NCBI RefSeq assembly: GCF_058153355.1
Contig: NZ_CM177019.1
Direction: 5' to 3' (one strand)
DNA: 64,000 bases
The notes beneath the pieces were generated by a model. It had not been told where the DNA came from and searched no databases. It was given only the letters and a program-made list of their open reading frames with translations. This document shows positions 16,922-64,000 of this stretch, piece after piece (the first letter of the stretch is position 1; every line of letters begins with the position of its first letter). A program made the translations under genes and the position numbers.

Positions 16922-17002
16922 AAAAAAACCTGCTGGTGAGGCAGGTTCTTTTATTTACTACTTTGACGATAACTTGCTGATTGTGCAACATTTCGTACCA
17001 AC
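16922..17002 (-). ncRNA. orzO: Candidate antisense sRNA antitoxin (OrzO-like), about 80 nt
   Basis: Minus-strand TTGCAA-N17-TATAAT promoter (-10 at 17009..17014), 5' 18 nt complementary to the zorO leader, intrinsic terminator hairpin ~16929..16947 plus T-run. Confidence 0.55.
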
Positions 17003-21421: not shown

Positions 21422-21424
21422 TCC

Positions 21425-24400: not shown

Positions 24401-25213
24401 GGAATATTGCTGCAGGTTATCAGGTGCAATACCAGACGGCAGAATAATAATGGTATTATTCGCATAATCCCATTCAATATCAATCTGTTGAAGATGTATT
24501 ACTACATCAGTAGCATATTCCAGGCCACCTTCCTGAACGAGCTGATCCATAACATCCTCACGCTCTTTATATCTCGTGCACTTCAGTTCAAGTGCCGTGA
24601 GTACAGCCATTACTGGTGATGGTAACTGTGTTGTTTTCAGGCAGTCGATCTGACTGAGCGCCTGGGAGATGGCGTTTTGCCATTCTAAAGAACAGGCGCT
24701 GAAGTCAAATGTGGCTGTTTTATTATCCCGTTGCAACACGCTACAGGCTAAGCGGCGTAACTGGGTCAATTCGTCTGCTTGCTGAACAGGAACTCCGGGA
24801 AAGCGGCGATGGCTTAACGTGGTGTGTACAACTTCGGGCGGAAAAACGACAGCAATATCTTTCGCCAGCCACGGTAAAACATCATCTGTATTTTTGTCAG
24901 CCACACGGGCTTCTGCTACGCAAAAGGGTTGTTCCTGAATAATGGTGGATAAGGCCGCTACCTTGAGAGAATCCGTTACCGTTTGGGAAGGTTGCAAAGA
25001 ATTATCCTTCGCTTGCCCCACATACCCCTTCTTCACCTTCTCCGCAATCAGCCTCAGTTCCGCTTTTTCCGCCGCCGCAGCATCAGCAAAGCTTTTTACC
25101 TGGCTTTGCCCGTTGGTACTGACTTTGCCCCAACTAATATGCAGCTCGTTTCCCTGTTGCTCCACTGCCCAGAATTTATGTGATTTTTCGTCCTGATAAA
25201 TATAGGTTTTCAT
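21425..25213 (-). CDS. WGR domain + DUF4132 protein, MolR-family paralog (middle copy)
   Basis: 1262 aa; N-terminal WGR signature KFWAVEQQGNELHISWGKVSTNGQ; stop 3 bp from the yehI start. Confidence 0.8.
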   Translation of the reverse strand: MKTYIYQDEKSHKFWAVEQQGNELHISWGKVSTNGQSQVKSFADAAAAEKAELRLIAEKVKKGYVGQAKDNSLQPSQTVTDSLKVAALSTIIQEQPFCVAEARVADKNTDDVLPWLAKDIAVVFPPEVVHTTLSHRRFPGVPVQQADELTQLRRLACSVLQRDNKTATFDFSACSLEWQNAISQALSQIDCLKTTQLPSPVMAVLTALELKCTRYKEREDVMDQLVQEGGLEYATDVVIHLQQIDIEWDYANNTIIILPSGIAPDNLQQYSSFELRLRKHLSLAEESLWQKCAQKLIAAIPHIPEWRQPLIALLLPEKPEIAHEIAQRLLGKKKLPSLEWLKIVATDEHILASLEKYHEPYAIFDDYYCGAILSATVLQEQGVAALPRFAPYAASDYCADVLRHINHPFALTLLIRVAGQTKRCHDRMTKACAAFPHAALAALAELLAQKEENTWRIMLMTMLISQPALAEQVTPWLSTAAVEVLKSCQQQLIQPSNHACAALLPAVLVLPPWLSKKKKSTIPVLDLAPLKLKSICTITDTEAKEFQTHWDWESHKPGEGAKDFLYSLGYRRWDFDTYKYIGASDSAIDAWEREDFATLIQMFKAHHAPYQGEWHLNSLPFLPMQTAIKLWEFLSKEPHTAVKPVMLYLRLAGMSGFLHSFSRYPQEGFAVANYFAATELAPAVARAFNKLKTLRQDARTWLLKYPEHAIIGLLPAALGKAGEAQDNARAALRMLIESGYPSLLQEIAQRYNQPEVTDAVNALLALDPLDNHPTKIPTLPAFYQPSLWTRPVLKANAQSLPDNALLHLGEMLRFPQEEALYAGLLQVKDACTADSLAEFAWDLFTAWQTAGAPSKESWAFTALGVLGNDDTARKLTPLIRAWPGESQHKRATVGLDILAAIGSDIALMQLNGIAQKLKFKALQERAKEKIADIAESRELTVAELEDRLAPDLGLDDNGSLLLDFGPRQFTVSFDETLKPFVRDASGSRLKDLPKPNKSDDETQANDAVNRYKLLKKDARTVAAQQVARLESAMCLRRRWSPENFQLFLVEHPLVCHLTRRLIWGIYSADNQLLACFRVAEDNSYSTADDDLFTLPEGDISVGIPHVLEISPTDAAAFGQLFADYELLPPFRQLDRNSYALTETERNASELTRWAGRKCPSGRVMGLANKGWMRGEPQDGGWIGWMIKPLGRWSLIMEIDEGFAVGMSPAELSAEQLLSKLWLWEGKAESYGWGINSTQEAQFSALDDITASELINDIEALFE

Positions 25214-25225
25214 TGCTAATTCCTT

Positions 25226-28200
25226 TTAATTAAACAGTGATTCAATGTCGTTAATCAGCTCGCTGGCGGTGATGTCGTCGAGTACGGAGAAAGTGGGTGA
25301 GGATTGCTTACCATAGCGATCATAAGGGGCGATGATTTTTACGCTTTCGACAGGCAGCAGGTCGCTATACCCCGTTTCGCCATAAATTAATGAAAAAGGT
25401 TCTGTTTCAAGTTCGAGAGCGCCATAAGGGGTAGATTTGCGCATCGCATAGACGCTGCCGCTTTCTTCCAGACGTTGCCAGCCTCTGCGTTCCAGCCCGA
25501 CAATGCGTCCGGCCTGGCAGAGACGTCCGTTCCAGCGTGACAATTCATGGACATTACGTTCGTTATCAGCAAGGTGGTAACTACCACGTTCGAGCTGTTG
25601 GAAGGGGGGAAGCAGTTCGTAATCAGCGTAAATTTGCCTGAATGCAGCGACAGATTCAGGGGGGATTTCCAGCATATGCGGAATACCGATGTTTCCTGCT
25701 GGTAGCGTGAATAGCTCATCCTGCATATCGCTGTAAGTGCTGTCTTCTGCGACCCGGAAGCAGGCAATCAGCGTGTTTTCCTCAGTATATACTCCCCATA
25801 ACAGCCGTCGGGTTAAGTGACGTACCAGCGGATGCTCCACCAGAAACAGGCGGAACTGTTCTGCCGTCCAGCGTCTGCGCTGGCACATAGCCTGCTCCAG
25901 ACGATCAATCTGCTGACTGGCAATGGCGCGCACATCTTTCTTCAATTGTTTGAAGAGGTTAACGGCGTCAGTTGCCAGTGTTTTATCATCGCTCTGATTT
26001 GGTTTGGGTAAATCTTTCAGGACTTTGCCGTTTGCATCGCGCACTACAGGTTTTAAGGTTTCGTCAAAACCAACGGTGAATTGACGTGGGCCGAAATCCA
26101 GTATCAGCGAGCCACTGCTATCAAGCCCTAAATCTGGAGCCAGGCGGTCTTCCAGTTCAGCCATTGTCAGTCCGCGATTTTCGGCGACCATATTGATTTT
26201 GTCGCGGGCGTGTTCCTGCAATGCTTTGAATTTAATTTTTTGTGCAATGCCATTAAGCAGCATCAGCGCAATATCGCTACCGATACTGGCTAACACATCC
26301 AGCCCAGAAACCGCACGTTTATGCTGGGATTCACCCGGCCAGACCCGGATAAGCGGGGTTAGTTTACGCGCGGTGTCGTCATTGCCTAAAATCCCCAGCG
26401 AGGTAAATGCCCAGTTTTCTTTTGCGGGCGCGCCAGATTCCATCCATGCCGTGTAGAGATCCCAGCCAAAGTCAGCCAGTGATTCCCGGGTGAAGGTCTC
26501 TTTGATGATCGCCAGCCCAGCGTAGGAGGTAATGTCGCGTGGAAAGCTCAATATTGTGCCCAGGTGGCGCATAGCGTCATCGGGCAGAGGCAGGTTGTTA
26601 CTTTTAAGCCGTGGTCTGCGCCATAAGGTGAACTGATAAAAGCCGGGCAGTGGGGCGATTTTTGCAGGATATTCTTCCAGTGGATCGCTATCGAACAATG
26701 TTGCCAGCGCAGCTAAAACATCAGGTTGATTATATCCCCGGGCGATTTCCTCAATCGTTTCTCGCTGGTTTAAATTCACCAGCAGGCGAAGCGCCTGGCG
26801 GGCACAATCACGATCTTTTCCTTTTTTGCCCAGGGCCACAGGAAGTAGCCCGGCGGCGGCATGGTGTGGGAAGTTAGCCAGCCATTTTCGGGCATCTTCA
26901 TAAGACATTTTTTTCTGTAATCGCTGCGCCATCGGTAATGCTAATTCGCTGACGCCCAGGAAAAGGGTGAATATCCACAACTGTTGTGGCTTACGTTGCA
27001 GACATTTCATAAACGCAGGAATGGCCGCATCACCAAAAATCGCCAGAATTTCTCTCTCGCCGGAGAATTGCTCTTCATTAATTATTTGATTGAGAAAAGA
27101 AATAGCATGCTGAGTGGGTAGGAAGCAGAGCGCGTACAACTGCCAGTGTCTGCTTCCTTTATTATGGTATTGCGCAAACTCTGCTTTCAGCGCGGGGAAA
27201 TCGAAACGTAACAGGGCCTCAACTGCGCTTTGTGGCATTATTTTTTTTTCGTATTGTTCTTCTCCGGTTCTGCTCCATTCCTTAAACCCCAGTCGCCAAA
27301 GGATTTGCTGTTCTGGCGTTAAAGGGATGAAAGACGTTTCCCAGCTTTCCTTTTCAATTAGTGGCAGATCGGTAAATAAGGTTTGCTGTGATGCCTGATA
27401 TTTCGCGATTTCACTGAATCTGGATATGTCAGTGTGACTGATTAACTCTGTAATTCCAGGTGTGATGTCAGTGACGGAAGGGATGGGAAGTACCGGTAAA
27501 TCAAATACGGGTATTACATTCTTTTTCTTATTTATTGCCCACGGTGGAGCGACAAGCAGTTCTGGCAACATATTCGCAGTGGCATACTCACATTCTTTAG
27601 CTACTGACTGAGGACGACATTCAGATAAGATGCCTGCCGCTTTAGCATTAACCCAGGGAATGACGTCGCGTACTAACTCTGGCGTGACGGTAACCAGTTT
27701 GACAAGCGCGTTGCGCCACTGTGCATCTTCATGTATTGCCAGCAAAGTAGCATAAGCGGCAATAGCCGCAGCGGGATGTTTTTGGCAGGCTTTGCTTAAG
27801 TATTCCAGGTGCTTTTTCTTGCCATTTACACCGAGGATCAGAATTTGAATCGCATCCGGGTGATTCGTTTTCCATAGCCATTTGACAAGATCTTCAGTCT
27901 CGCTGATGCGCTCGAAGAGATAAGTGGGATTGTCAGAATGCTCTTCCGTAAACTCAGTAAGTATCCGGCTTACACCGCGCCCCCCATTATTTGCCAGCAA
28001 CATTGCCAGATAAGCGCGAAAATCACGATACAACGGTGGGAAGTCGTATTTTTCTGCTGTAGTCAGAGCTATATCATCGGTTACTACCACTCTTAACCAG
28101 GTTATCGCCGGAACGTTTTGGTCTGCATAGCGTAGAGCCATAGCATTGGCAATATCCGGGCGTTCAGGGAGCAGTAACGCGGCAAAAGGTTGCCGTGCTG

Positions 28201-29023
28201 GGGATAGCGTCGGAATAGCAGTAAGCACTTTATCCACACAGCGTTGCCACTCATCTTCTGAAGCGAGTGAAAGATGATGACATAGACGTTGATGCCAACT
28301 CGGTAGCGATTCTGCTTCGTGATTAGGTGGAATGATGGTGGTTACTGCGCCTTTTACTGGTTTATATTTGAGTTGAAGAGCGAGAAGGGCGATTTCAACG
28401 GCACTTTCCAGACCACAGCGAATGACTAAGTCATCGACCAGTTCATCTTGAGAGTAAGAGTTCCAAAAGCCCCAGAGCAATGCCGCATCAGATTGCGCAC
28501 TCCCTGTCTGTTTATTACCCAGAATTCGCATTTGTACCTCAGCAAAAGCCTGCTGCCAGTTTTCTGGATAAGAACGGTAATTGTTGTCGGGGTCATATGC
28601 CCTGGTGTTATTCGCGATGCGCTTCCATATTTGACCATCTTTGTGCAGATAATTGATATCTCTGGGGCGAGAGCGATGTGGAAAAGCAAATCGGTTAATA
28701 TCGTCGGTTAGCGGAATGACTGCATCATCAGCCAGCCATGGGCGTTTGTTTTTACTCTCGGGTGAAGTTTTAACGTCAGGAGTGACTTTGGTGACGGGGG
28801 ATATATGCACGTTTGCCGAAGCGTCTTCCACATAGCCTTTTTTCGTTTTCTCTGCGATAAGCTTCAGTTCCGCTTTTTCCGCTGCTGCAGCATCAGCAAA
28901 ATTTTTTACCTGGCTTTGCCCTTGGGTACCAACTTTTCCCCAACTGATATGCAAATCGTTACCTTGCTGCTCCACCGCCCAGAATTTATGCGATTTTTCG
29001 TCCTGAAAGATAAAGTGTCTCAT
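25226..29023 (-). CDS. molR: WGR domain + DUF4132 protein, MolR-family paralog (metG-proximal copy)
   Basis: 1265 aa; near-identical N-terminal WGR module; 12-bp gap to the middle paralog; sits where K-12 has molR. Confidence 0.75.
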   Translation of the reverse strand: MRHFIFQDEKSHKFWAVEQQGNDLHISWGKVGTQGQSQVKNFADAAAAEKAELKLIAEKTKKGYVEDASANVHISPVTKVTPDVKTSPESKNKRPWLADDAVIPLTDDINRFAFPHRSRPRDINYLHKDGQIWKRIANNTRAYDPDNNYRSYPENWQQAFAEVQMRILGNKQTGSAQSDAALLWGFWNSYSQDELVDDLVIRCGLESAVEIALLALQLKYKPVKGAVTTIIPPNHEAESLPSWHQRLCHHLSLASEDEWQRCVDKVLTAIPTLSPARQPFAALLLPERPDIANAMALRYADQNVPAITWLRVVVTDDIALTTAEKYDFPPLYRDFRAYLAMLLANNGGRGVSRILTEFTEEHSDNPTYLFERISETEDLVKWLWKTNHPDAIQILILGVNGKKKHLEYLSKACQKHPAAAIAAYATLLAIHEDAQWRNALVKLVTVTPELVRDVIPWVNAKAAGILSECRPQSVAKECEYATANMLPELLVAPPWAINKKKNVIPVFDLPVLPIPSVTDITPGITELISHTDISRFSEIAKYQASQQTLFTDLPLIEKESWETSFIPLTPEQQILWRLGFKEWSRTGEEQYEKKIMPQSAVEALLRFDFPALKAEFAQYHNKGSRHWQLYALCFLPTQHAISFLNQIINEEQFSGEREILAIFGDAAIPAFMKCLQRKPQQLWIFTLFLGVSELALPMAQRLQKKMSYEDARKWLANFPHHAAAGLLPVALGKKGKDRDCARQALRLLVNLNQRETIEEIARGYNQPDVLAALATLFDSDPLEEYPAKIAPLPGFYQFTLWRRPRLKSNNLPLPDDAMRHLGTILSFPRDITSYAGLAIIKETFTRESLADFGWDLYTAWMESGAPAKENWAFTSLGILGNDDTARKLTPLIRVWPGESQHKRAVSGLDVLASIGSDIALMLLNGIAQKIKFKALQEHARDKINMVAENRGLTMAELEDRLAPDLGLDSSGSLILDFGPRQFTVGFDETLKPVVRDANGKVLKDLPKPNQSDDKTLATDAVNLFKQLKKDVRAIASQQIDRLEQAMCQRRRWTAEQFRLFLVEHPLVRHLTRRLLWGVYTEENTLIACFRVAEDSTYSDMQDELFTLPAGNIGIPHMLEIPPESVAAFRQIYADYELLPPFQQLERGSYHLADNERNVHELSRWNGRLCQAGRIVGLERRGWQRLEESGSVYAMRKSTPYGALELETEPFSLIYGETGYSDLLPVESVKIIAPYDRYGKQSSPTFSVLDDITASELINDIESLFN

Positions 29024-39700: not shown

Positions 39701-39973
39701 ATGTCTCATACAATCCGTGATAAACAGAAACTGAAAGCGCGTGCCAGTAAGATTCAGGGCCAGGTCGTGGCGCTCAAGAAAATGCTCGACGAGCCGCACG
39801 AATGCGCAGCTGTTCTACAACAGATTGCTGCTATCCGTGGCGCGGTAAACGGCCTGATGCGCGAAGTGATTAAGGGGCATCTGACGGAACACATCGTTCA
39901 CCAGGGGGATGAGCTAAAACGTGAAGAAGATCTGGATGTCGTTCTGAAGGTGCTGGATTCTTATATCAAATGA
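39701..39973 (+). CDS. rcnR: Ni/Co-responsive repressor RcnR (YohL)
   Basis: 90 aa, [22 protein letters not shown]... Confidence 0.9.
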
Positions 39974-40082
39974 AAGTGCCTAATATGGCCGTAGTTGAGG
40001 CAATAAATAGAGGGACAAGTGACGTTAAGCTGAATTAGAGTAAATGGCGTGAGGACACACGCCATTCGAGGATATAGTTTGA

Positions 40083-40397
40083 TTAATTTTCGAAAAATTG
40101 CTTCACAGCCCAGCCACCATGACCACCTGGAGTTATGAATGAAACAAAACCTTTGTCATCGACGCTCTGGATTTCTACTGTCATTGATTCATCTAACACG
40201 CGACATTTATTGGATGTAATGAGACTCAGCATAGCCTGTTGGTCATTGTCCTGGATGTAACTGATCATCTCGTAAAAGTCAGTTAACTTTTTACAGTTAA
40301 ATGTACCTTCTTTAAGTGTTGCGCTGTCTCCGTGACTTAGTGCGAATGCATTTGGCATCATTGCCACAAAGATGACGGTAACGAGTAGTTTTTTCAT
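40083..40397 (-). CDS. Hypothetical small secreted protein (104 aa, two Cys in mature part)
   Basis: Signal peptide MKKLLVTVIFVAMMPNAFA; low-GC island; no family recognised. Confidence 0.55.
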   Translation of the reverse strand: MKKLLVTVIFVAMMPNAFALSHGDSATLKEGTFNCKKLTDFYEMISYIQDNDQQAMLSLITSNKCRVLDESMTVEIQSVDDKGFVSFITPGGHGGWAVKQFFEN

Positions 40398-40406
40398 TGT
40401 AGCCTC

Positions 40407-40754
40407 TTATAATTCAGAACATTCACTGATGTTGTAAGTGCCTTTTCTACCATCATCGTTTACGAGATGTAGCACGAAGATGATGGGATTGGCATCAATG
40501 AAAGATACAGAGACGTTCCCGCTTTCGGTGCTATACATCTTTGCAATCTGTTTTTCACCAATATATGAAAGATCCCAACTCACTCCGTTCAAGCTAAAAT
40601 GCATCTGTTTGCCGTCAATATCGATGGAGGATTGTGCCGTAACGGTTTTCCCATTGCTGCCAATTTGACCCTGCTGAAGAGCATCACATTTATAGGAGCT
40701 TGCATAAGTAAATAGAGGTAGTAGCAGAAGTGCAGCAAAAATTTTACTCTTCAT
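40407..40754 (-). CDS. Hypothetical small secreted protein (115 aa, Cys near both ends of mature part)
   Basis: Signal peptide MKSKIFAALLLLPLFTYA; 9 bp upstream of the 104-aa ORF on the same strand. Confidence 0.55.
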   Translation of the reverse strand: MKSKIFAALLLLPLFTYASSYKCDALQQGQIGSNGKTVTAQSSIDIDGKQMHFSLNGVSWDLSYIGEKQIAKMYSTESGNVSVSFIDANPIIFVLHLVNDDGRKGTYNISECSEL

Positions 40755-41807
40755 ATTTTCCCTTTGCTTGGATTTGAGTTACCTATTTTGGGGTAGTCAT
40801 TATAAAACTATTAATTAGTAAAATGAACAAGTTTTCATTTGTTTAGTAATGGTATTGTTTAGGTTTGAAATTATTACGTACTTTCATAGCAATAGGTTGG
40901 ATAAACAGCAGTTCAGAGAACAAGTTGCACTATCTACATACTTTCCCGCTTTCCATTGTATGTTAGGTAATAGATAGCCTTTGCCCGTAAGACTAAAAAT
41001 ATTAGAAATGACTCATTCGAATACCTTCTATTCACCTTAATATAGGTTTGATTATTGTAATCGTTTAATGTGTCTTATGGATTTTTTCCTACTTTTCATT
41101 TGCATAATATAGGGGGCACAGCATGCTCTTGAAATTAATTATTAAGATATTTAAATTTTACAGCACACAACTACTTTTCGTTGTCTTATGTGTTGAACGT
41201 ACTTCGAGTATAGGTAGGGTTGTATATATATTGCGTGGGTAGAGTTAGAATAGAGGAGGCATCATTTATAGAATATTCAAGAACGTTAACCTGTGATCAA
41301 TAAATAAAAATATCAAATGGTGTTCAAACATATTTTTCTATGAAAAATCCAGCCATCTATGATGAATTTTTAGATCCATTTTAATTAAAGTATGATTATG
41401 AACCAATATTTAGCCAAGAATGGTGGTATAGCGCGTATCCAATGACACCGGAAAACGCATCTATGAAGTCCTTGTTTATCTCTATAAGAGGAAATCAACA
41501 CTAATAAAATATAGTGATGTAACACATCGAGCAGGTTGCTCTGATGCTGGTCTTCAACTGTGGCTTAAACAGCTATCAAACTTCGGTGTTATTGAGATGA
41601 AAGAATTATCTTTCTCAACTTTCAATCTCAAAAAGCTAGAGGAAATAGACCTTAATTATTCCACTCTCTAAACTTATCTCTTTATTTAAAGTAAAAATGA
41701 AAATATTATGGTATCAGCTACGTGGTGGTAACTGGTGTTTATGATCATAGGTACACATATACAGGGAACCCTGGAAAACAAAAGTAATATATTGATGATT
41801 TCGTTTG

Positions 41808-42047
41808 TTATAACTTCGTGGTATCAAGTCCGGCGGCTTTGAGTCGCTCGGTAAGATTTCTCATTTTGCTGAACTCTGTACCAAAGCTGGCTTTAAGTCC
41901 TACACCTTCGCAAAACTCTTTTGCCGTGACGTTTTTAAGATGGTCAGCGTATTTGATCATCTGGAGGTGCATTTCCATCGTTTGGCTATTTCGTGGTGCG
42001 CTGCTAATGGCTTGCTTAATGTTCTCGTAGATCTGGGTTTCTGTCAT
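41808..42047 (-). CDS. Hypothetical 79-aa protein, possible helix-turn-helix
   Basis: AGGTGAG Shine-Dalgarno ~8 nt upstream; HTH call is by eye only. Confidence 0.4.
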   Translation of the reverse strand: MTETQIYENIKQAISSAPRNSQTMEMHLQMIKYADHLKNVTAKEFCEGVGLKASFGTEFSKMRNLTERLKAAGLDTTKL

Positions 42048-42271
42048 TTTTTATCTCACCTATCAAATTTAGATAAATAATATAAATTAGATAAATAAGA
42101 TAATCAATAGTTTTTACCATATGAATAATGGATGTGGATTGTTTCTTTTTCATTTCTGATATGGAGTACAAAATGGGGTCACAATGAAGAAGCGATGAAT
42201 GGAGGCGAGCTTGCATCTGCAAGCCTCTTCCCCTAATCTGGCACAAAATATAGAGATTCAACCAAACGACT

Positions 42272-42392
42272 CGGGGTGCCCTTCTGCGTGAAGGCTGAGA
42301 AATACCCGTATCACCTGATCTGGATAATGCCAGCGTAGGGAAGTCACGGACCACCAGGTCATTGCTTCTTCACGTTATGGCAGGAGCAAACT
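42272..42392 (+). ncRNA. TPP (thiamine pyrophosphate) riboswitch in the thiM leader
   Basis: THI-box core ...ggggtgcccttctgcgtgaaggctgagaaatacccgtatcacctgatctggataatgccagcgtagggaa... directly upstream of thiM ATG. Confidence 0.9.
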
Positions 42393-50204: not shown

Positions 50205-50336
50205 ACCCCGTAGGGCGGATAAGGCGTTCACACCGCATCCGGCAACCTATGCCTGATGCGACGCTGAAGCGTCTTATCATGCCTACACAGCGCTGCCACG
50301 TATGCCGGATAAGGCGTTTACGTTGCATCTGGCATA
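50205..50336. repeat. Cluster of REP/BIME extragenic palindromes
   Basis: Three REP-like units (gtagggcggataaggcgttcacaccgcatccggcaa and relatives). Confidence 0.6.
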
Positions 50337-52653: not shown

Positions 52654-53103
52654 ATGACTAACCTGTTTGTTCGTAGCGGAATTTCTTTTGTCGATCGTAG
52701 CGAAGTTTTAACCCATATCGGTAATGAGATGATCGCGAAAGGTGTGGTTCATGAAACCTGGCCACAGGCATTAATTGCCAGAGAAGCAGAATTCCCCACC
52801 GGGATAATGCTTGAACAGCACGCCATTGCAATACCGCATTGTGAGGCGATTCATGCTAAGTCGTCAGCTATTTATCTGTTAAGACCGGCGAATAAAATAA
52901 AGTTTCAGCAAGCTGATGATGATAACGACGTGGCGGTGTCGTTGATTATCGCGCTGATTGTCGAAAATCCGCAGCAGCAACTGAAGCTTTTGCGGTGCTT
53001 ATTTGGCAAGTTGCAGCAACCAGATATCGTTGAAACGCTAATCACCATTTCTGAATCGCAATTAAAGGAATATTTCACACAGCATATTTTAGATTCCGAA
53101 TAA
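52654..53103 (+). CDS. gatA: Galactitol PTS enzyme IIA
   Basis: 149 aa. Confidence 0.85.
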   Translation: MTNLFVRSGISFVDRSEVLTHIGNEMIAKGVVHETWPQALIAREAEFPTGIMLEQHAIAIPHCEAIHAKSSAIYLLRPANKIKFQQADDDNDVAVSLIIALIVENPQQQLKLLRCLFGKLQQPDIVETLITISESQLKEYFTQHILDSE

Positions 53104-53143
53104 CCAAAAACCTCTGTACCAATAAAAAGGATTGATTATGAAA

Positions 53144-53428
53144 CGCAAGATAATTGTCGCTTGCGGAGGCGCGGTTGCGACCTCTACGATGGCGGCGGAA
53201 GAAATTAAAGAGTTGTGCCATAGCCATAATATCCCCGTTGAAGTAATCCAGTGTCGGGTTAATGATAATGAAATAGAAACCTATATGGATGGCGTACATC
53301 TTATTTGTACTACCGCCAGAGTTGACCGCAGTTTTGGCGATATTCCGTTAGTTCACGGCATGCCTTTTGTTTCTGGTGTCGGTATCGAAGCATTACAAAA
53401 TAAAATTCTGACTATCTTACAGGGGTGA
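53144..53428 (+). CDS. gatB: Galactitol PTS enzyme IIB
   Basis: 94 aa from [16 protein letters not shown]. Confidence 0.85.
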
Positions 53429-53431
53429 CCT

Positions 53432-54787
53432 ATGTTTTCAGAAGTCATGCGTTATATTCTCGACCTCGGCCCTACGGTCATGTTGCCGATTGTCATCATT
53501 ATTTTTTCTAAGATATTAGGCATGAAGGCAGGCGATTGCTTTAAAGCGGGTCTGCATATCGGGATTGGCTTTGTTGGTATCGGCCTGGTGATTGGCTTAA
53601 TGCTGGATTCCATTGGCCCGGCGGCGAAAGCAATGGCGGAAAATTTCGACCTGAATCTGCATGTGGTCGATGTCGGCTGGCCGGGCTCTTCACCAATGAC
53701 CTAGGCGTCGCAAATTGCGCTGGTGGCGATTCCGATTGCGATTCTGGTTAACGTGGCGATGCTACTGACCCGTATGACGCGGGTGGTAAATGTTGATATA
53801 TGGAATATCTGGCATATGACCTTCACCGGCGCATTGCTGCATCTGGCAACCGGTTCATGGATGATAGGGATGGCGGGTGTGGTAATTCACGCGGCGTTTG
53901 TTTATAAGCTCGGCGACTGGTTTGCCCGCGATACCCGAAATTTCTTTGAGCTGGAAGGCATTGCTATTCCGCACGGTACGTCGGCGTATCTGGGGCCAAT
54001 TGCGGTGCTGGTCGATGTTATCATCGAGAAAATCCCAGGGGTTAACCGTATTAAATTTAGCGCCGACGATATTCAGCGCAAATTTGGCCCATTTGGCGAA
54101 CCTGTCACCGTGGGCTTTGTGATGGGGCTGATTATCGGCATCCTCGCGGGTTACGATGTCAAAGGTGTATTACAGCTGGCGGTAAAAACGGCGGCAGTTA
54201 TGCTGCTGATGCCACGGGTGATTAAACCCATCATGGATGGTTTAACGCCCATCGCTAAGCAGGCCCGTAGTCGTTTACAGGCGAAGTTCGGCGGTCAGGA
54301 GTTCCTGATTGGCCTTGATCCGGCGTTGCTGCTGGGGCATACGGCGGTGGTATCGGCAAGCCTGATTTTTATCCCGCTCACCATTTTAATTGCTGTTTGT
54401 GTTCCGGGTAATCAGGTACTGCCGTTTGGCGACCTTGCCACCATCGGCTTCTTTGTTGCGATGGCAGTTGCCGTGCATCGTGGAAATCTGTTCCGCACCT
54501 TAATCTCGGGTGTCATCATTATGAGCATCACCCTGTGGATCGCGACGCAAACTATTGGTTTGCACACCCAACTGGCGGCTAATGCTGGGGCGTTAAAAGC
54601 CGGGGGCATGGTGGCTTCAATGGATCAGGGCGGTTCTCCCATTACCTGGTTACTGATTCAGGTTTTCTCCCCGCAAAATATTCCCGGTTTCATTATTATC
54701 GGTGCCATTTATCTTACCGGTATTTTCATGACCTGGCGTAGAGCGCGCGGCTTTATTAAACAAGAGAAAGCCGTTCTCGCAGAATAA
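53432..54787 (+). pseudogene. gatC: Galactitol PTS enzyme IIC interrupted by an in-frame amber (TAG) codon at 53702..53704
   Basis: ORFs 53432..53704 and 53723..54787 are in the same frame separated by a single TAG; the codon encodes Trp (TGG) in intact GatC as I recall it. Confidence 0.7.
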
Positions 54788-55326
54788 TTTTTACCTGAGG
54801 GGGAGTTTATCCCCCTTAATAATCAGGAGTTTTTATGAAATCAGTGGTGAATGATACTGATGGTATCGTACGCGTTGCCCAACGAGTCATTCCTGAAATT
54901 AAACATCAGGATGAGGTGCGGGTAAAAATTGCCAGCTCGGGATTATGTGGTTCCGATTTACCCAGAATTTTTAAAAATGGTGCACATTATTATCCAATAA
55001 CGTTAGGCCATGAATTTAGCGGCTATATTGATGCTGTGGGATCCGGTGTTGATGATTTACATCCTGGCGATGCGGTTGCCTGTGTGCCGTTATTACCCTG
55101 TTTTACTTGTCCAGAGTGTCTGAAAGGGTTTTATTCCCAGTGCGCAAAATATGATTTTATTGGCTCACGGCGTGATGGTGGGTTTGCCGAATATATTGTC
55201 GTTAAGCGGAAAAATGTCTTTGCTCTACCTGCGCATATGCCTATTGAGGATGGGGCTTTTATTGAACCGATTACCGTTGGCCTGCATGCTTTCCATTTAG
55301 CGCAAGGTTGTGAGAATAAAAACGTT

Positions 55327-55339
55327 ATTATTATTGGTG
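55327..55339. repeat. Left copy of 13-bp target site duplication attattattggtg
   Basis: Identical 13-mer at 56766..56778. Confidence 0.8.
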
Positions 55340-56765
55340 TAATGCCAGTCAGTTAAGCAACTGACTGGCTCTTTTTCGGGGCTGTGGGGTATTTCCAGGG
55401 CCTCTCCTTTACCACTCTCGGGAAGGCCCTTTCCCTTCTTGTCGGTAATTTCACAAGTTGTCCCATACTTGCAAGATCGCGCATCAGCTCCGGTATACGT
55501 CCCGGTGAAGCGCCCTGCAATGTCATCAGCATTCTCATCACCATTCCGCATGATTCTGAGAAACTCAGTTGATTCGGCCAGTAACCTTTCAGATGTTCCG
55601 CCATTTTAATCATCTGATATCTCACCAGATTATAAGCCAGTAAGACACCCCACAGCTCTTGCTCCACAAGCTCCGGCTTTTTACTTCTCAGCGTCAGCCT
55701 GCTCAGTTGCATCGTCTGTTTTATCTCCCTGTATCCCAGTTCGATTTCCCAGCGATGACTGTACAGATCCGCCATTTCTCCTCCGGGGAAGCGCATGGCG
55801 TCCGTCATCGACGTCAGCAGATGGCAGACTTTTCCTTTGCGCGTCACGGTCAGCAGGCGGGCTGTCACTTCATTTCCCAGTCCCGGCCACTTTTTTCGTG
55901 CCTGCGGGCTGGTTTTCAGCTTCACCAGATGATCGCCTTTACCCAGTTTTCTGATCTCTTCATATTGCGCTCCCTTTCTGAGAGGTATCATCCAGTGGCG
56001 GTGTTCTCCCGCCAGGCTCCAGGCATTTAACAGTCCCAGTGAGTAATAACCTTTATCCATTAACGTCAGAGTGTTATCGCCGGTTTGTTCTATAAGTTGC
56101 TCAGCAAGCTCATTTTCGCTGTTCTTCATCGTGCCGAAGGCTGCAGCCGTCAGCAGATGGCTGGTCAGTTCCATCTGGCAGACCATTTTGACCTGCGGGT
56201 AGAGCGCCGGGTTCCCGGCATGTGTCTGGCGGGGGAAGGCTGCATCGTTCTCTGGTGTATCCGGTGTGCGCCAGAACACACCATCGATGGCCAGCAGGGT
56301 CAGGCCGCACCAGTGCGGATGCGGCGTGGCGTTATGCCAGAGCTGCGCTGTTTTCGTGAACACGCGGCGGACAGCCTCACTTCCCAGGCGCTGGCGGGCC
56401 TGAATAACGGCACTGGGGGCAACGAAGGGGCGATTGCCCGGCAGCATGATGTCCAGGCGATTCACAATCTGGTGAAGAGGTTCTTTACGCTCAAGCGCCA
56501 TGCCAACAATACACCAGACCATCATTTCGAGGGGAAGACGGCGCTTGCGTAGCGTTACAGTACCTGATTCGGCAAGGCAACGAGAGATGAGTTCGGGGTC
56601 GAGGTAATCCCCCAGAGAAGTCAGTGGGTTACGCAGAGAATCGTAACGGGATACCAGATCAAGAGCCTGTCCAATGTGCATAAAAAAATCCGGAAACAAG
56701 TGAGCGTTTCCGGATTCTTACACAGCCACTGGATCGGTCAACTGATCCTTAACTGATCGGCATTA
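55340..56765 (-). mobile_element. IS4 insertion sequence (1426 bp)
   Basis: Terminal inverted repeats taatgccagtcagttaag / taatgccgatcagttaag; single transposase ORF; flanked by 13-bp direct duplication. Confidence 0.85.
55353..56681 (-). CDS. IS4 transposase (DDE family)
   Basis: 442 aa from [20 protein letters not shown]; ORF track starts at an upstream TTG. Confidence 0.85.
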
Positions 56766-56778
56766 ATTATTATTGGTG
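56766..56778. repeat. Right copy of 13-bp target site duplication attattattggtg
   Basis: Identical to 55327..55339. Confidence 0.8.
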
Positions 56779-57413
56779 CCGGAACCATTGGCCTGCTGGC
56801 CATTCAGTGCGCTGTCGCGCTGGGAGCAAAGAGTGTGACGGCTATCGACATTAGCTCAGAAAAACTGGCACTGGCAAAATCTTTCGGTGCGATGCAAACA
56901 TTTAACAGCCTTGAAATGAGCGCGCCGCAAATGCAGCCCGTTTTACGCGAGCTGCGCTTTAATCAGCTTATCCTCGAGACGGCTGGCGTCCCGCAAACCG
57001 TCGAACTGGCGGTAGAGATTGCCGGGCCTCATGCCCAGCTGGCGCTGGTGGGCACGTTGCATCAGGATCTGCATTTAACATCGACAACGTTTGGCAAAAT
57101 ATTACGTAAAGAGCTGACGGTTATCGGCAGTTGGATGAACTACTCCAGCCCTTGGCCGGGGCAGGAGTGGGAAACGGCGAGCCGGTTGCTGACAGAACGT
57201 AAGTTAAGCCTGGAGCCATTAATCGCTCACCGTGGAAGCTTTGAAAGCTTCGCCCAGGCGGTGCGTGACATCGCTCGTAATGCTATGCCGGGCAAAGTGT
57301 TGCTTATTCCCTGAAACCGCGGGCCAGCGTGATGCTGGCCCGGTATTGTGCAAAACAGATCATTCACCAATGGTCCCCCTTCGTTTACACTAGCCACAAT
57401 TGAATATGGGTAA

Positions 57414-58193
57414 ATGACGATGAATTCATTCGAGCGAAGGAATAAGATCATCCAATTAGTGAATGAACAGGGAACCGTGCTTGTTCAGGATCTGGCGGGA
57501 GTATTTGCTGCCTCGGAAGCGACAATCCGTGCCGATTTGCGCTTTCTCGAACAAAAAGGCGTGGTTACGCGCTTTCATGGCGGTGCGGCGAAAATAATGT
57601 CCGGTAATAATGAAACCGAGACCCAGGAAGTCGGGTTTAAAGAGCGATTTCAGCTCGCCAGCGCGCCGAAAAACAGAATAGCGCAGGCGGCAGTCAAAAT
57701 GATCCACGAAGGGATGACCGTTATTCTCGACAGCGGAAGTACGACAATGCTTATCGCCGAAGGTTTAATGACCGCCAAAAATATCACGGTGATTACCAAC
57801 AGTCTCCCGGCGGCGTTTGCCCTTTCCGAAAATAAAGACATTACTCTGGTCGTCTGTGGTGGCACGGTCCGCCATAAAACGCGCTCGATGCATGGCTCCA
57901 TTGCCGAGCGTTCATTGCAGGATATTAATGCCGATTTAATGTTTGTCGGTGCTGATGGTATTGATGCGGTTAATGGTATTACGACCTTTAATGAAGGTTA
58001 TTCGATTAGCGGTGCGATGGTCACAGCCGCTAATAAAGTGATTGCCGTTCTCGATTCATCGAAATTTAACCGTCGCGGTTTTAATCAGGTACTGCCAATC
58101 GAAAAAATTGACATTATTATTACTGATGATGCCGTGTCAGAGGTGGATAAACTGGCATTGCAGAAAACACGGGTGAAATTAATTACGGTGTAG
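57414..58193 (+). CDS. gatR: DeoR-family galactitol operon repressor (intact)
   Basis: 259 aa uninterrupted; N-terminal HTH. Confidence 0.85.
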   Translation: MTMNSFERRNKIIQLVNEQGTVLVQDLAGVFAASEATIRADLRFLEQKGVVTRFHGGAAKIMSGNNETETQEVGFKERFQLASAPKNRIAQAAVKMIHEGMTVILDSGSTTMLIAEGLMTAKNITVITNSLPAAFALSENKDITLVVCGGTVRHKTRSMHGSIAERSLQDINADLMFVGADGIDAVNGITTFNEGYSISGAMVTAANKVIAVLDSSKFNRRGFNQVLPIEKIDIIITDDAVSEVDKLALQKTRVKLITV

Positions 58194-59974: not shown

Positions 59975-60322
59975 GAATAGATTCAAGACTACCATGGACA
60001 CATCCATTTTTATCTCTGATAAGGTATTCTTCAACACCATTATTGAATGTGAGTAATAATGACAAGCAGATAGATGAAACTACAGCAGAATTTTTATTTT
60101 ATGCGGCTATCAGAAAATGATGGCATAAATATTCCTATGCTTTAGCTTCATTTTTTGTAAGCGTCAAACATGCGCGTTCTGGCTGTGCGTAGCCGGACCC
60201 TGTGCGAGCACGATGCCGTTAAGTGAAAGGCATCGTGCTATGAAGGGGAATTCTATCGATATGGTCAATGGAAGGAGGTAACCAGGTATGAATCCTTCCT
60301 TCTGTTTCATTGAATTACGCAT

Positions 60323-60349
60323 AAAAAATAAGCCCGTGTAAGGGAGATT
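60323..60349. other. P2-type attachment core at the host/prophage junction (attL)
   Basis: aaaaaataagcccgtgtaagggagatt, the 27-bp P2 core as I recall it, ~80 bp from the int stop. Confidence 0.7.
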
Positions 60350-60428
60350 TAGGGTGTCACCAGTAGGGGCTTTCAACGGTACAATGCGGGTTTGAGCGGC
60401 ATAAATTACCACTGAAAGCCCTTAAACG

Positions 60429-61442
60429 TTACTCTACTGTGGACACTGTGTGGACACTCTCGGCCTCAGTACCACCTCTTAGCGGATTAAGAGAAATGGC
60501 GTCCTGAAGGTACTCTGGCGCAAAGTGAGCGTAAACCATAGTTTGCTCAATCCGCGTGTGACCTAGTATCCGTTGTAGCGTGATAATACTTCCTCCATTA
60601 ATCATGAAATGAGTGGCAAAGCTGTGCCTTAGTGCATGTGTGGCTTGCCCCATTGGCAAATCCGGTTTTATTGCTTTCATTGTTCGTCTGAAGCGAGGGT
60701 AATCAGCATCAGGGAATAAAAAACCTCGTTTGTTATCCGCGATCATTTTGGCAACAGCCTCTGAGATCGGGACGGTGCGTGGTTTGTTTGTTTTCGTTTT
60801 AACAAACGTGACGCGGTTATGGATGATATTTTCTGCTTTCAAACGAGCTGCTTCTCCCCAACGTGCTCCAGTACTCAGGCAAAGAATCGCAATCTTTTTA
60901 TTGTCGCCGTCAAGAGCAGCAAGCAGTAAGGCAATTTCTTCCTGCGTGAGATAGCCTGTGTCTGGTTTTTCCTCCTTAAGCCTTTTTGTCCCTCTGATAG
61001 GGTGCTCACCAAAGAATAACTCCGCTTCAATCAGGGCTGTAAACATGCCGCTAATACATGTTAAATCACGATTGATACTCGAAGGTTTAATACCCTGACT
61101 TCTTCGGGTGGCGCAGTACTGGCTGATAAGCGATTTCGTAATTTGAAATGCGCATGGGTCATTCGTTATTTTTGTGAAGATTTCAATTTTTCCAAGATTA
61201 GATTTCCCATGCTCTTCGTGTTTACCCTTTAAATCCCACCAGATCTGTGTCAGCTCCGACAGACGTCGCTTGTCTGTTGGTTTTGATAGCCATTCTTTAT
61301 TGTGGTGGTTGTACAACGTGTATTTCTCGAAAGCGACAGCTTCGCTTTTCTTATCAAACTTCCTACGGATGCGTTTTCCATTACGTCCAGTAGGGCGGAT
61401 GTCCACTTCATATCGACCATCATCGAGTTTTTTGATTGCCAT
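60429..61442 (-). CDS. int: P2-type tyrosine integrase
   Basis: 337 aa; catalytic RxxR...HxxRH...Y signature in the C-terminus. Confidence 0.9.
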   Translation of the reverse strand: MAIKKLDDGRYEVDIRPTGRNGKRIRRKFDKKSEAVAFEKYTLYNHHNKEWLSKPTDKRRLSELTQIWWDLKGKHEEHGKSNLGKIEIFTKITNDPCAFQITKSLISQYCATRRSQGIKPSSINRDLTCISGMFTALIEAELFFGEHPIRGTKRLKEEKPDTGYLTQEEIALLLAALDGDNKKIAILCLSTGARWGEAARLKAENIIHNRVTFVKTKTNKPRTVPISEAVAKMIADNKRGFLFPDADYPRFRRTMKAIKPDLPMGQATHALRHSFATHFMINGGSIITLQRILGHTRIEQTMVYAHFAPEYLQDAISLNPLRGGTEAESVHTVSTVE

Positions 61443-61557
61443 CAGAAAACCCTCCGAGTGGTGTGTTTTTTGGCGACTACTAATCGCTTTTTTCGTGGTG
61501 GCTGAAATTTAGCCACCAATAGTAGGCACTTGTGATGAATATATTCACGATGAATTG

Positions 61558-61857
61558 TTAACCAGTCTTTTGACCGGAGTGGGGCGACGTTGTTTCGTTT
61601 TGCCCAAAGTGTGCGAGAGCGGGCGCAATTTGCCCGGACTCAGGAGCGATCTGATTGGTCATGAACCATAAAGTGTATTTGGTGAATTGTGGGGTCTGCA
61701 GGATGTTCATCATGACATCTGTTGGAGGTGTTGAACGACCACTTTCATAGTAACTCAGCGTGCCATACGGAACCCCTGTTAAATCAGCAAGTTGTTGTCT
61801 GCTCAAATACTCTGATTTTCGCATTAAGACTATCTTCTCGCTTATCGTGTTTGACAT
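61558..61857 (-). CDS. C: P2-type immunity repressor C
   Basis: 99 aa with HTH (LSRQQLADLTGVPYGTLSYYESGRSTP). Confidence 0.85.
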   Translation of the reverse strand: MSNTISEKIVLMRKSEYLSRQQLADLTGVPYGTLSYYESGRSTPPTDVMMNILQTPQFTKYTLWFMTNQIAPESGQIAPALAHFGQNETTSPHSGQKTG

Positions 61858-61971
61858 GGTGTTTAGATCTCAATAGTATTTAGTTTAGATGTAGATTGTT
61901 TAGTGCTTGGATGTGGGCACTAAAAGGCATTATAAGGCATTAAACGCAATTCATGAGGGCTGGAGGACGAC
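61858..61971. promoter_or_regulatory. P2 Pc/Pe divergent promoter-operator switch region
   Basis: Divergent C and cox starts; tttagat-type direct repeats (tttagatctc, tttagtttagatgtagattgtttag). Confidence 0.6.
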
Positions 61972-62247
61972 ATGAGCAAGCAAGTAACACTCATGACTGA
62001 TGCGATTCCTTATCAGGAGTTCGCAAAACTAATAGGAAAATCGACAGGAGCGGTTCGTCGGATGATCGATAAAGGAAAGCTGCCTGTAATTGATATGACC
62101 GATCCACAATCAGCTTCAGGTCGTGCAGGTGAATATTGGGTATACCTTCCGGCATGGAATAACGGACTAAAACTGGCTTATGAAAGCCGCCCTAAAGAGA
62201 TTCGTGACGGCTGGTTGATGTGGTTAGGTCTCGGTGAACCACGTTAA
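61972..62247 (+). CDS. cox: P2 Cox (excisionase / repressor of Pc)
   Basis: 91 aa, first gene of the early rightward operon. Confidence 0.85.
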   Translation: MSKQVTLMTDAIPYQEFAKLIGKSTGAVRRMIDKGKLPVIDMTDPQSASGRAGEYWVYLPAWNNGLKLAYESRPKEIRDGWLMWLGLGEPR

Positions 62248-62428
62248 GGAGAACCGTATGAATGAGCCTCGTTGTATTGCTCAGTTACTGCGTAACGAAA
62301 GCCCCAGGGCGATTGACTTCAACATCACCCACGGTAAGGGGCGTAAGGGAATCATTATCCGCACCAAAAAACAGAGTCCGTTAAAAAAGGCTCTGACCTT
62401 TCTGAAAAGCCGGAGGGTATGGAAATGA
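62234..62428 (+). CDS. P2 orf78-like small protein
   Basis: 64 aa ORF overlapping the cox end, in P2 gene order. Confidence 0.6.
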   Translation: MNHVKENRMNEPRCIAQLLRNESPRAIDFNITHGKGRKGIIIRTKKQSPLKKALTFLKSRRVWK

Positions 62429-62925
62429 CAGTGATGACGCTCAATCTCGTTGAAAAACAGCCAGCAACTATGCGCCGGATAATTGGTAAGCATCTGGCCG
62501 TCCCTCGCTGGCAGGAGACATGCGATTATTATAATCAGATGATGGAACGTGAACGGCTAACGGTTTGCTTCCATGCGCAGTTAAAACAGCGTCACGCAAC
62601 GATGCGTTTTGAAGAAATGAACGACGTCGAACGTGAACGACTGGTATGTGCAATTGATGAATTGCGTGGGGCATTCTCAAAACGCCGTCAGGTTGGCGCA
62701 AGTGAGTATGCATATATTAGTTTTTTAACAGTCAGTCAGCGTCGCACTTTATTTATGCACGCACGACTGACAGAAAAAGAATTTAACCAGCCATACTGGC
62801 GAATTAATGAAGAATCATGTTACTGGCGTGATGCTTTATTCCGTGCATTACGTGAATTATTCAGTCTGTTTGAGTATGCACCGACAATTCTGACGTCGGT
62901 AAAACCAGAGCAATATCTGCATTAA
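62425..62925 (+). CDS. B: P2 replication protein B
   Basis: ~166 aa; position after cox/orf78. Confidence 0.75.
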   Translation: MTVMTLNLVEKQPATMRRIIGKHLAVPRWQETCDYYNQMMERERLTVCFHAQLKQRHATMRFEEMNDVERERLVCAIDELRGAFSKRRQVGASEYAYISFLTVSQRRTLFMHARLTEKEFNQPYWRINEESCYWRDALFRALRELFSLFEYAPTILTSVKPEQYLH

Positions 62926-62955
62926 GTAATTAACCAGAGTTTTTAACGCACTTAA

Positions 62956-63213
62956 TTGTGCGGGGCTTCTTTTTGCCTGGAGAAAGTCATGCATACAGTT
63001 TCTGAAAATCAGTGCGGTATATACGCATTACTGCTGCAACAGGCCAGAACCGAAGCACAGGCTGACGCTGCGACGCGCTTTTCTTCTCATCTTGACGCCA
63101 TGATTCGCCACATCACAAAGGCGGAGTTATCCCGCGTGGAGATAGTCGAGCTGCTCAGTCAGGAGTCGGAAAAATTTCACAATATCGGATTGTCTCGTGG
63201 GGAGGTGCTTTGA
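62956..63213 (+). CDS. P2 orf80-like protein
   Basis: 85 aa ORF in the early operon. Confidence 0.6.
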
Positions 63214-63515
63214 TGTCCTGTTCTCATTCAGTTGTATTACTGAATAACGCCTTAAAAATCGCCGTTATGGAAAATGGCGATTTGTCTCTTATTCAACTTG
63301 GTCTTGATAAAGAAAAGCGCGACATAACTGAATCTGTTATCGCGATTTATCAGAGCGAATTAAACCTCCTGTCTGATGTGATCAATTTACTTGTGAAACG
63401 CGCTGTATTTCACAAGCAAATTTCCTCAGTGGATGAACTGACAAAATTAACGACAGAACTCGCCAGCTATTGCGCTGATGAATTTAAGAAACTGAACGAC
63501 AAAAGGAACTGGTAA
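63210..63515 (+). CDS. P2 orf81-like protein
   Basis: 101 aa; 4-bp overlap with previous ORF. Confidence 0.6.
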
Positions 63516-63739
63516 TGCCGGACAACGTAGATTTCATTCAGGAACAACAGGCTGAATTACTGGAGCGCCAGATTAACGCGGCAAGGGTAAAACATTGCGG
63601 TGCTTCTGCGCTGGTTTGCGAAGAGTGTGACGCGCCAATACCTGCTGCCCGTCGTGCGGCTTATCCGTCAGCCACGCGTTGTGTTTCCTGTCAGTCAGTC
63701 TTTGAAGCAAAAAACAAACATTACCGGAGAACGGCATGA
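63515..63739 (+). CDS. P2 orf82-like TraR/DksA-family zinc-finger protein
   Basis: 74 aa with C-x2-C ... C-x2-C motif. Confidence 0.65.
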   Translation: MPDNVDFIQEQQAELLERQINAARVKHCGASALVCEECDAPIPAARRAAYPSATRCVSCQSVFEAKNKHYRRTA

Positions 63740-64000
63740 GTATTCGTATTGAAATTGGCGAACGTTATGTCGTTACCAGTGACAGCTTCCAGTTTATTCT
63801 CCACGAGAAAAAGAGAGCGGAAAGCGGTAAAAACGCCGGTCAGGAATGGCTGGCGGTGGTTGGTTATTACCCGAAATTAAGCCAGCTCGTTTCCGGCCTG
63901 ATGCATCACGATATTCTGACCGGAAGCGCAAAGTCTTTTGCTGATTTAAACGCGCAGGTTGAGCAACTCAGCAAGCGTTGTTCAGAGGCTTTTGGCTCAT
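63736..64000 (+). CDS. P2 orf83-like protein, truncated by the window end
   Basis: ATG at 63736 overlapping the orf82 stop; frame open to position 64000. Confidence 0.5.
   Translation, partial: MSIRIEIGERYVVTSDSFQFILHEKKRAESGKNAGQEWLAVVGYYPKLSQLVSGLMHHDILTGSAKSFADLNAQVEQLSKRCSEAFGS

Follow-up and report, generated by a model that had tools for sequence, protein, structure and literature searches.

A complete IS4 element was found inserted in gatD in the analysed stretch of DNA (64 kb, hereafter the window), in an operon whose gatC gene already carried an amber codon. This arrangement is best, and quite probably, explained by a recent and ordinary transposition of IS4 into gatD, the insertion then being neutral in an already dead pathway. 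Both the element and the phenomenon were known before. What is new is the insertion site, which is specific to the strain, and, in passing, the recurrence of gatC nonsense mutations at Dcm sites.

The chromosome hosting the insertion is collinear with that of E. coli and diverges by 4-6% from K-12 in every gene tested (metG displaying 96.3% identity), and the complete genomes nearest to the window share 98.1% identity with it. From these sequence comparisons, the host appears to be an under-sampled, deep-branching lineage of Escherichia. The gat cluster shows the normal gene order fbaB-gatYZABCD-gatR and is collinear with the clusters of E200086, 2013C-4282 and MG1655. No stop codons were detected in gatY, gatZ, gatA, gatB and gatR of the window. 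The features discussed below are collected in Table 1.

Table 1. Features of the gat region around the IS4 insertion (positions in the window)
Feature	Position	Strand	Description
gatC (galactitol PTS subunit IIC), pseudogene	53432-54787	+	amber W91* at 53702-53704
gatD, 5' part	54835-55339	+	codons 1-168 and first base of codon 169; 100% identical to E200086 gatD nt 1-505
Target-site duplication, copy 1	55327-55339		ATTATTATTGGTG; perfect 13-bp direct repeat
Complete IS4	55340-56765	transposase on minus strand	1426 bp; sole IS4 copy within the 64-kb window
Terminal inverted repeat, transposase-stop end	55340-55357		TAATGCCAGTCAGTTAAG
Candidate terminator	55344-55369	+	within the IS4 end; perfect hairpin of 11 bp, then a T-run; consensus match only
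IS4 transposase, InsG-like, intact	55353-56681 (including stop codon)	minus	single ORF, 442 aa from ATG
Terminal inverted repeat, transposase-start end	56748-56765		CTTAACTGATCGGCATTA as read in the window
Target-site duplication, copy 2	56766-56778		ATTATTATTGGTG; perfect 13-bp direct repeat
gatD, 3' part	56766-57314	+	corresponds to nt 493-1041 of uninterrupted gatD; stop codon and duplicated 13 bp included
gatR, DeoR-family repressor of the gat operon, intact	57420-58193	+	99.5% nt identity over the full annotated gene; no stop

The IS4 element and the interrupted gatD gene

The element was identified as IS4; it is complete and its DDE transposase is intact. When compared with the annotated IS4 of MG1655, only 3 of 1426 nucleotides were found to differ (1423 being the same), and the termini were identical. 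Full-length copies with 99.9% identity to the window element are present in many complete E. coli genomes (NCTC86, IAI39, CE10 and others), and at least one near-complete copy was detected in 2479 of 5426 such genomes. The terminal inverted repeats (TAATGCCAGTCAGTTAAG and TAATGCCGATCAGTTAAG, the right terminus being the reverse complement of the latter) match at 16 of 18 positions, with mismatches at positions 8 and 9. The IS4 subgroup is described with a length of 1400-1650 bp and the end signature -AATR--------WTW (PMC2266710, Table 1). The ends of the window element fit this signature, and its length of 1426 bp and its duplication length also lie within the values of the subgroup (PMC2266710).

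Analysis of the transposase gave matches to the Pfam families Nterm_IS4 (114 bits) and DDE_Tnp_1 (111 bits), both above the cut-offs, and to NCBIfam NF033592 (IS4 family transposase) with 304.5 bits (cut-off 115). From residue 307 onwards, the protein contains the Y(2)R(3)E(6)K motif. The K-12 copy of IS4 (insG; NC_000913.3, 4502090-4503515) has the same length, the same ends and a single 442-aa DDE transposase with the YREK motif. It differs from the window copy by the three substitutions mentioned above, two of which change amino acids of the transposase (G304A and R326L, the only two differences from K-12 InsG), by a target duplication of 12 instead of 13 bp, and by its location upstream of nanX instead of in gatD.

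The match between the two direct repeats flanking the element stops at 13 bp in both directions, and no further copy of the 13-mer was found on either strand of the window. The probability of a chance match of 13 bp at two fixed positions is about 4^-13. A single 13-mer was found at the empty gatD sites of 2013C-4282, SRR28786219 and ERR273769, so that the filled site of the window can be set against an empty site not only in a clone-mate with 100% identity but also in other strains. Seven other IS4 copies that were read display target duplications of 11 or 12 bp. The original prediction attributed duplications of 11-13 bp to IS4, and the 13 bp observed here do lie in the known range of 10-13 bp (PMC2266710, Table 1).

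Removal of the element together with one copy of the repeat restored an ORF of 1041 nt encoding 346 aa and containing NVIIIGAGTIGLLAIQ. The restored gatD is 100.0% identical at the nucleotide level to the intact gatD of E. coli 2013C-4282. Its product was recognised by the NCBIfam equivalog NF007642 (galactitol-1-phosphate 5-dehydrogenase) with 722 bits, the cut-off being 550, and aligned with PDB 4A2C over its full length (residues 1-346, E = 2.4e-229). The description given in the original prediction, namely a 1426-bp IS4 with 18-bp imperfect terminal inverted repeats and a 442-aa transposase, flanked by a perfect 13-bp direct repeat and by sequences that reconstitute the GatD frame, was therefore borne out in its coordinates, its repeats, its ORF and its assignment to IS4.

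IS4 breaks gatD after the first base of codon 169, within the GAGTIG (GxGxxG) nucleotide-binding motif and just ahead of the ADH_zinc_N domain (residues 172-305). The 5' part of the gene reads on into IS4, giving a product of 173 aa that consists of 168 native residues followed by VMPVS. This fragment keeps only ADH_N and has no cofactor domain. It thus corresponds to the N-terminal catalytic domain alone, which makes gatD a null allele. The hairpin and T-run listed as a candidate terminator lie at the IS4 end which transcription coming from the gat genes reaches first, suggesting that the insertion is probably polar as well; a scan of the region for promoters and terminators returned matches at consensus level only.

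Loss of gatD as such is not rare, the gene being missing or fragmented in 357 of 5426 complete E. coli genomes (about 6.6%). The exact gatD/IS4 junction was detected in none of the 5426 complete RefSeq E. coli genomes, nor was it found in GTDB species representatives or in JGI metagenomes. The search among Logan assemblies gave one match only, in the separate short-read assembly SRR31441161, which carries the same junction and is 100% identical to the window.

The amber codon in gatC

The amber codon reported for gatC is real and affects codon 91, where TGG was changed to TAG by a G to A substitution at 53703. Intact alleles read ACCTGGG at this place and the amber allele reads ACCTAGG (CCTAG at 53700-53704), which locates the mutation in a Dcm site. 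The changed G is position 4 of CCTGG and pairs with the methylated C of CCWGG. Deamination of the 5-methylcytosine in Dcm sites (CCWGG) is a classical mechanism of amber hotspots (Coulondre et al. 1978, reviewed in PMC12606429). The gatC amber most likely arose in this way, the Dcm-methylated cytosine in the bottom strand having been deaminated so that CCTGG became CCTAG. The dcm gene itself is located outside the window. With the classical hotspots (PMC12606429) W91* shares the change from CCTGG to CCTAG, the recurrence and the invariable TAG. It differs from them in that the lacI hotspots are CAG codons scored in the laboratory, whereas the gatC case concerns a TGG codon in natural isolates, and in that the non-Dcm control codon W83 of gatC recurs as a stop codon too.

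All 11 sampled W91* loci displayed TAG and none of them TGA. The exact 90-aa truncated GatC was detected on 410 contigs, including one of Shigella dysenteriae 1617. TAG at codon 91 occurs on gatC haplotypes that are 10-52 nt apart and that are not monophyletic relative to the TGG alleles (K-12, L001, L003). The gatC allele of the window is only 9-10 nt away from TGG alleles as opposed to 39-52 nt from the other amber alleles, which indicates that W91* is recurrent. A second gatC amber, W406*, found in genomes of Shigella dysenteriae size, likewise corresponds to a change from CCTGG to CCTAG. W91* had been expected to be common in complete E. coli genomes. This expectation was contradicted by a 90-nt probe with the W91* TAG, which gave no exact match in the 4952 complete RefSeq E. 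coli genomes having the region; W91* is concentrated in Shigella dysenteriae, in draft assemblies and in metagenomes.

Truncation of GatC was also frequent at Trp codons outside Dcm sites. Products ending at such codons were found on 249 contigs for the 82-aa form and on 76-141 contigs for others, compared with 410 for the 90-aa form, these contig counts mirroring clone sampling and not independent events. Moreover, W83*, at a non-Dcm codon, recurs both as TGA and as TAG on many divergent gatC haplotypes. The proposal that the Dcm hotspot is the sole cause of the widespread W91* is weakened by these frequent non-Dcm truncations and by the recurrent W83*. The hotspot is a contributing cause and not the full explanation of how often gatC is lost. 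Whether neutral or selected, frequent loss of gatC is in line with the natural polymorphism for galactitol use described in the literature (PMC5850726).

The amber alleles of gatC bear private amino acid changes without counterpart in intact alleles, suggesting that they are true pseudogenes. A functional split GatC with re-initiation at GTG 53723 is disfavoured, as the private changes argue for relaxed constraint. The gat operon of Shigella dysenteriae (e.g. strain 1617, CP006736) resembles that of the window in carrying the same gatC W91* along with further lesions within the operon. Its decay is far more advanced, with IS1 insertions, a split gatZ, truncated gatA and gatB and the amber W406, and its W91* is located on a gatC haplotype 46 nt from that of the window.

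Order of the two lesions and the question of selection

The data set SRR28786219 was found among the Logan assemblies by an exact-protein look-up with the GatZ of the window. On the two sides of IS4, its contig matches the window with 100.000% identity over 9958 and 3318 bp (13.3 kb in all). In this contig, codon 91 of gatC is TAG, gatD is uninterrupted with 346 aa and the 13-mer is present once, which defines an empty site. In addition, the clone-specific C-terminal fragment of GatC (354 aa, with A196V) was identified on three contigs, two of which have an intact gatD and one the IS4 junction (SRR31441161). The presence of the amber together with an intact gatD in clone-mates with identical flanks indicates, by parsimony, that the amber came first and that IS4 followed very recently.

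The IS4 insertion consequently did not turn a gat-positive cell into a gat-negative one, since the background was already gatC W91*. Without GatC, galactitol would not enter the cell and no galactitol-1-phosphate would be made. Loss of GatD after loss of GatC would have no further phenotype, and the insertion would represent effectively neutral decay.

The original prediction had interpreted the gatC amber and the gatD insertion as two independent inactivations of one pathway and had taken them as a sign of selection against galactitol uptake or phosphorylation in this lineage. Both lesions are real. They are sequential and not parallel, and the proposed selection is not supported by them; that each was selected is considered unlikely. 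GatD acts downstream of the abolished transport, so that uptake and phosphorylation cannot drop below the level already reached when GatD is lost too. Further lesions are to be expected under relaxed constraint once an operon is dead, so this one cannot be counted as separate evidence of selection; the same holds for any two lesions in one pathway if they are sequential. The absence of the insertion from the complete E. coli genomes also argues against this proposal. Finally, the Dcm site at the gatC amber means that mutation bias contributes, which speaks against inferring selection.

A selective background for gat loss does exist, both in MG1655 in the mouse gut (PMC3945185, PMC5094792) and in the common gat-negative faecal strains. 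In MG1655, loss of gat function was the first and strongest adaptive step in the mouse gut, was caused by IS insertions in 79% of the cases, and arises at a rate of about 1e-5 (Barroso-Batista 2014, PMC3945185; Lourenco 2016, PMC5094792). Enterobacteria without gat function are often found in the faeces of humans and mice (Sousa 2017, PMC5850726), and gatC nonsense alleles recur at W91 and W83 on many unrelated haplotypes. Nevertheless, the experimental selection depended on a broken repressor gene: MG1655 is gat-constitutive through its disrupted gatR, and once gatR was restored, gat-negative mutants no longer emerged in the mouse gut (PMC5850726). The original prediction had pointed out that the K-12 cluster is instead hit in gatR, and the gatR of MG1655 is indeed split, by IS3E. 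In the window, gatR is intact, and constitutivity of the kind seen in MG1655 is absent. The mouse-gut mutants and the window have in common an IS-caused lesion in a gat structural gene, with gatC as a recurrent target. They differ in that the operon of MG1655 is constitutive and its loss beneficial, in that the genes hit in the mouse gut are gatY, gatZ, gatA and gatC and not gatD, and in that the window element is IS4 and has entered an operon already null via gatC. The recurrence of nonsense mutations at the non-Dcm codon W83 leaves room for species-wide selection for gatC loss. The IS4 insertion does not make such selection more likely.

If the amber is leaky, through read-through, a suppressor tRNA or re-initiation at GTG 53723, GatC might keep some function, and the lesion in gatD would then matter. 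In its fullest form, this line of thought combines recurrent positive selection for the loss of galactitol transport in natural E. coli and Shigella (W83, W91, W406) with a slightly leaky amber, so that a second adaptive step, taken through gatD::IS4 or through its polar terminator, would cut a residual cost or alter the expression of gatR. Such a combination appears quite unlikely.

It is also conceivable that the insertion, though real, does not stem from nature and was acquired by the sequenced isolate while it was stored or cultured in the laboratory. Movement of IS elements during storage is well known. The event must be very young, as the filled and the empty alleles do not differ by a single substitution in 13.3 kb, and the one further public data set with the junction perhaps derives from the same isolate. 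A laboratory origin is nonetheless regarded as improbable.

The reverse order of events, with IS4 entering gatD first and toxic galactitol-1-phosphate then selecting the gatC amber as a suppressor, was rejected as highly improbable. In its favour, sugar-phosphate toxicity in mutants of a downstream enzyme is a classical phenomenon. Moreover, galactitol inhibited the gat-constitutive ancestor (PMC3945185). Against it, the clone-mate SRR28786219 is decisive, as its flanks are 100% identical to those of the window and it has the amber while gatD is intact and the site empty. The amber is present on 3 of the 3 contigs with the GatC fragment of the clone and IS4 on 1 of 3, and two precise excisions of IS4 would be needed, without selection to drive them.

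An assembly artefact, in which a repeat-induced misjoin put an IS4 copy inside gatD, can practically be dismissed: IS copies do commonly cause misassembly and the short-read contig of SRR31441161 stops 26 bp into IS4, but both junctions carry the perfect 13-bp duplication, which is not expected from a misjoin, and the left junction was reproduced by an independent assembler.

Use of the insertion and choice of target

Beyond the annotation of the strain, the recent transposition of IS4 into gatD matters little, as it represents the ordinary decay of a dead pathway. The gatD::IS4 allele can be used as a clonal marker for the lineage, and it demonstrates recent IS4 activity there. Nonsense mutations have hit gatC repeatedly, two of the alleles lying in Dcm sites, which agrees with reports of natural polymorphism for galactitol use; these alleles could serve to test mutation bias against selection on a population-wide scale.

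With regard to the target site, six other IS4 copies and the one of K-12 were read, a small sample in which the targets mostly consist of an A-run, a GC-rich palindrome and a T-run. By comparison with this small sample, the gatD target displays an upstream A-run (AAAAA) 4 nt from the duplication and lacks the downstream T-run. Its duplication of 13 bp is the longest among the few IS4 copies read. The gatD site is thus a slightly atypical target for IS4, yet inside the known range.

Nonsense codons in gatC

The amber codon 91 of gatC in the window lies in a Dcm site (53700-53704), where CCTGG is changed to CCTAG. The same TAG at codon 91 was found repeatedly on gatC haplotypes that are 10-52 nt apart (gat-region loci L007-L016 of other genomes), including that of Shigella dysenteriae. 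The S. dysenteriae genomes with W91* display a further stop in gatC, W406*, which falls in another CCTGG site of the gene. Of the nine tryptophan codons of gatC, three (codons 91, 406 and 435) are embedded in CCTGG.

Repeated stops were also identified at W83, a tryptophan codon outside of the Dcm sites, in other lineages of E. coli and Shigella (loci L026-L033). Codon 83 is replaced by TGA in six of these loci and by TAG in two, and the haplotypes are at most 48 nt apart, plus one outlier (L033) which is more than 100 nt distant. Given the recurrence of stops at this non-Dcm codon, nonsense alleles of gatC seem to be generally common in nature.

The gatC gene of E. coli MG1655 (NC_000913.3, 2172921-2174278) is itself annotated as a pseudogene and shows a 2-bp insertion at about nt 915 when compared to other alleles. 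The K-12 reference thus carries lesions in gatC as well as in gatR.

Mosaic gat operon and an IS4 copy in another genome

Within the gat operon, gatA and gatB show 91.4% and 95.2% identity, respectively, to the nearest complete genome (window 52654-53428), and gatB differs from it by a 6-bp indel. In contrast, the flanking genes are much closer to that genome, with 98.3% for gatZ and 99.3-100% for gatC-gatD-gatR. The divergence of gatA and gatB is apparently a recombination mosaic within the operon.

In another genome with the gatC amber codon (CP026845.1, locus L011), an IS4 copy with 99.6% identity adjoins yegP (L011 15251-16273), a few kb off in the same neighbourhood. It is a different and independent IS4 insertion.

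Divergence of the lineage and other loci

All genes of the window that were compared are 3-10% divergent from K-12, with identities of 96.3% for metG, 95.8% for mrp and 89.7% for yehQ. The closest complete RefSeq genomes of E. coli are just 98.1% identical to the window, the lineage of which looks like an under-sampled, deep-branching Escherichia.

Features located in the window
Feature	Position	Strand	Remarks
OrzO-P type I antitoxin RNA	16922-16995	minus	Rfam RF02083; 90.6 bits, gathering score 60
Three tandem large ORFs	17765-29023	minus	1218, 1262 and 1265 aa
TPP riboswitch	42262-42358		upstream of thiM; 71 bits
naRNA4/REP-derived RNA match	50213-50283		between fbaB and gatY; 60.0 bits, barely above the threshold of 59.5
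P2-like prophage	about 60150-64000		starts 3' of yegR
Prophage integrase	60429-61442	minus	
Prophage HTH repressor	61558-61857	minus	99 aa
Prophage Cox	61972-62247		
Prophage RepB-like gene	62419-62925		

The prophage segment has a counterpart with 97.5% identity in GCA_030002775.1, the products of which bear the Pfam families of integrase, HTH repressor, Cox and RepB-like protein.

At the position of the three tandem ORFs, K-12 harbours yehF, yehH (a pseudogene) and yehI. The first ORF, to which the comparison was confined, matches yehI with 92-93% identity. The corresponding interval of E. coli E200086 contains just two truncated pseudogenes with SWIM and WGR domains. The OrzO-P RNA match implies a putative zor-orz toxin-antitoxin locus adjoining yehL.

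Between rcnR and the TPP riboswitch of thiM, the window contains about 2.3 kb (39972-42258) that are missing from E. coli 2013C-4282. For the corresponding stretch of E200086, the annotation lists a small protein of the outer membrane, a hypothetical protein and an HTH-like fragment.
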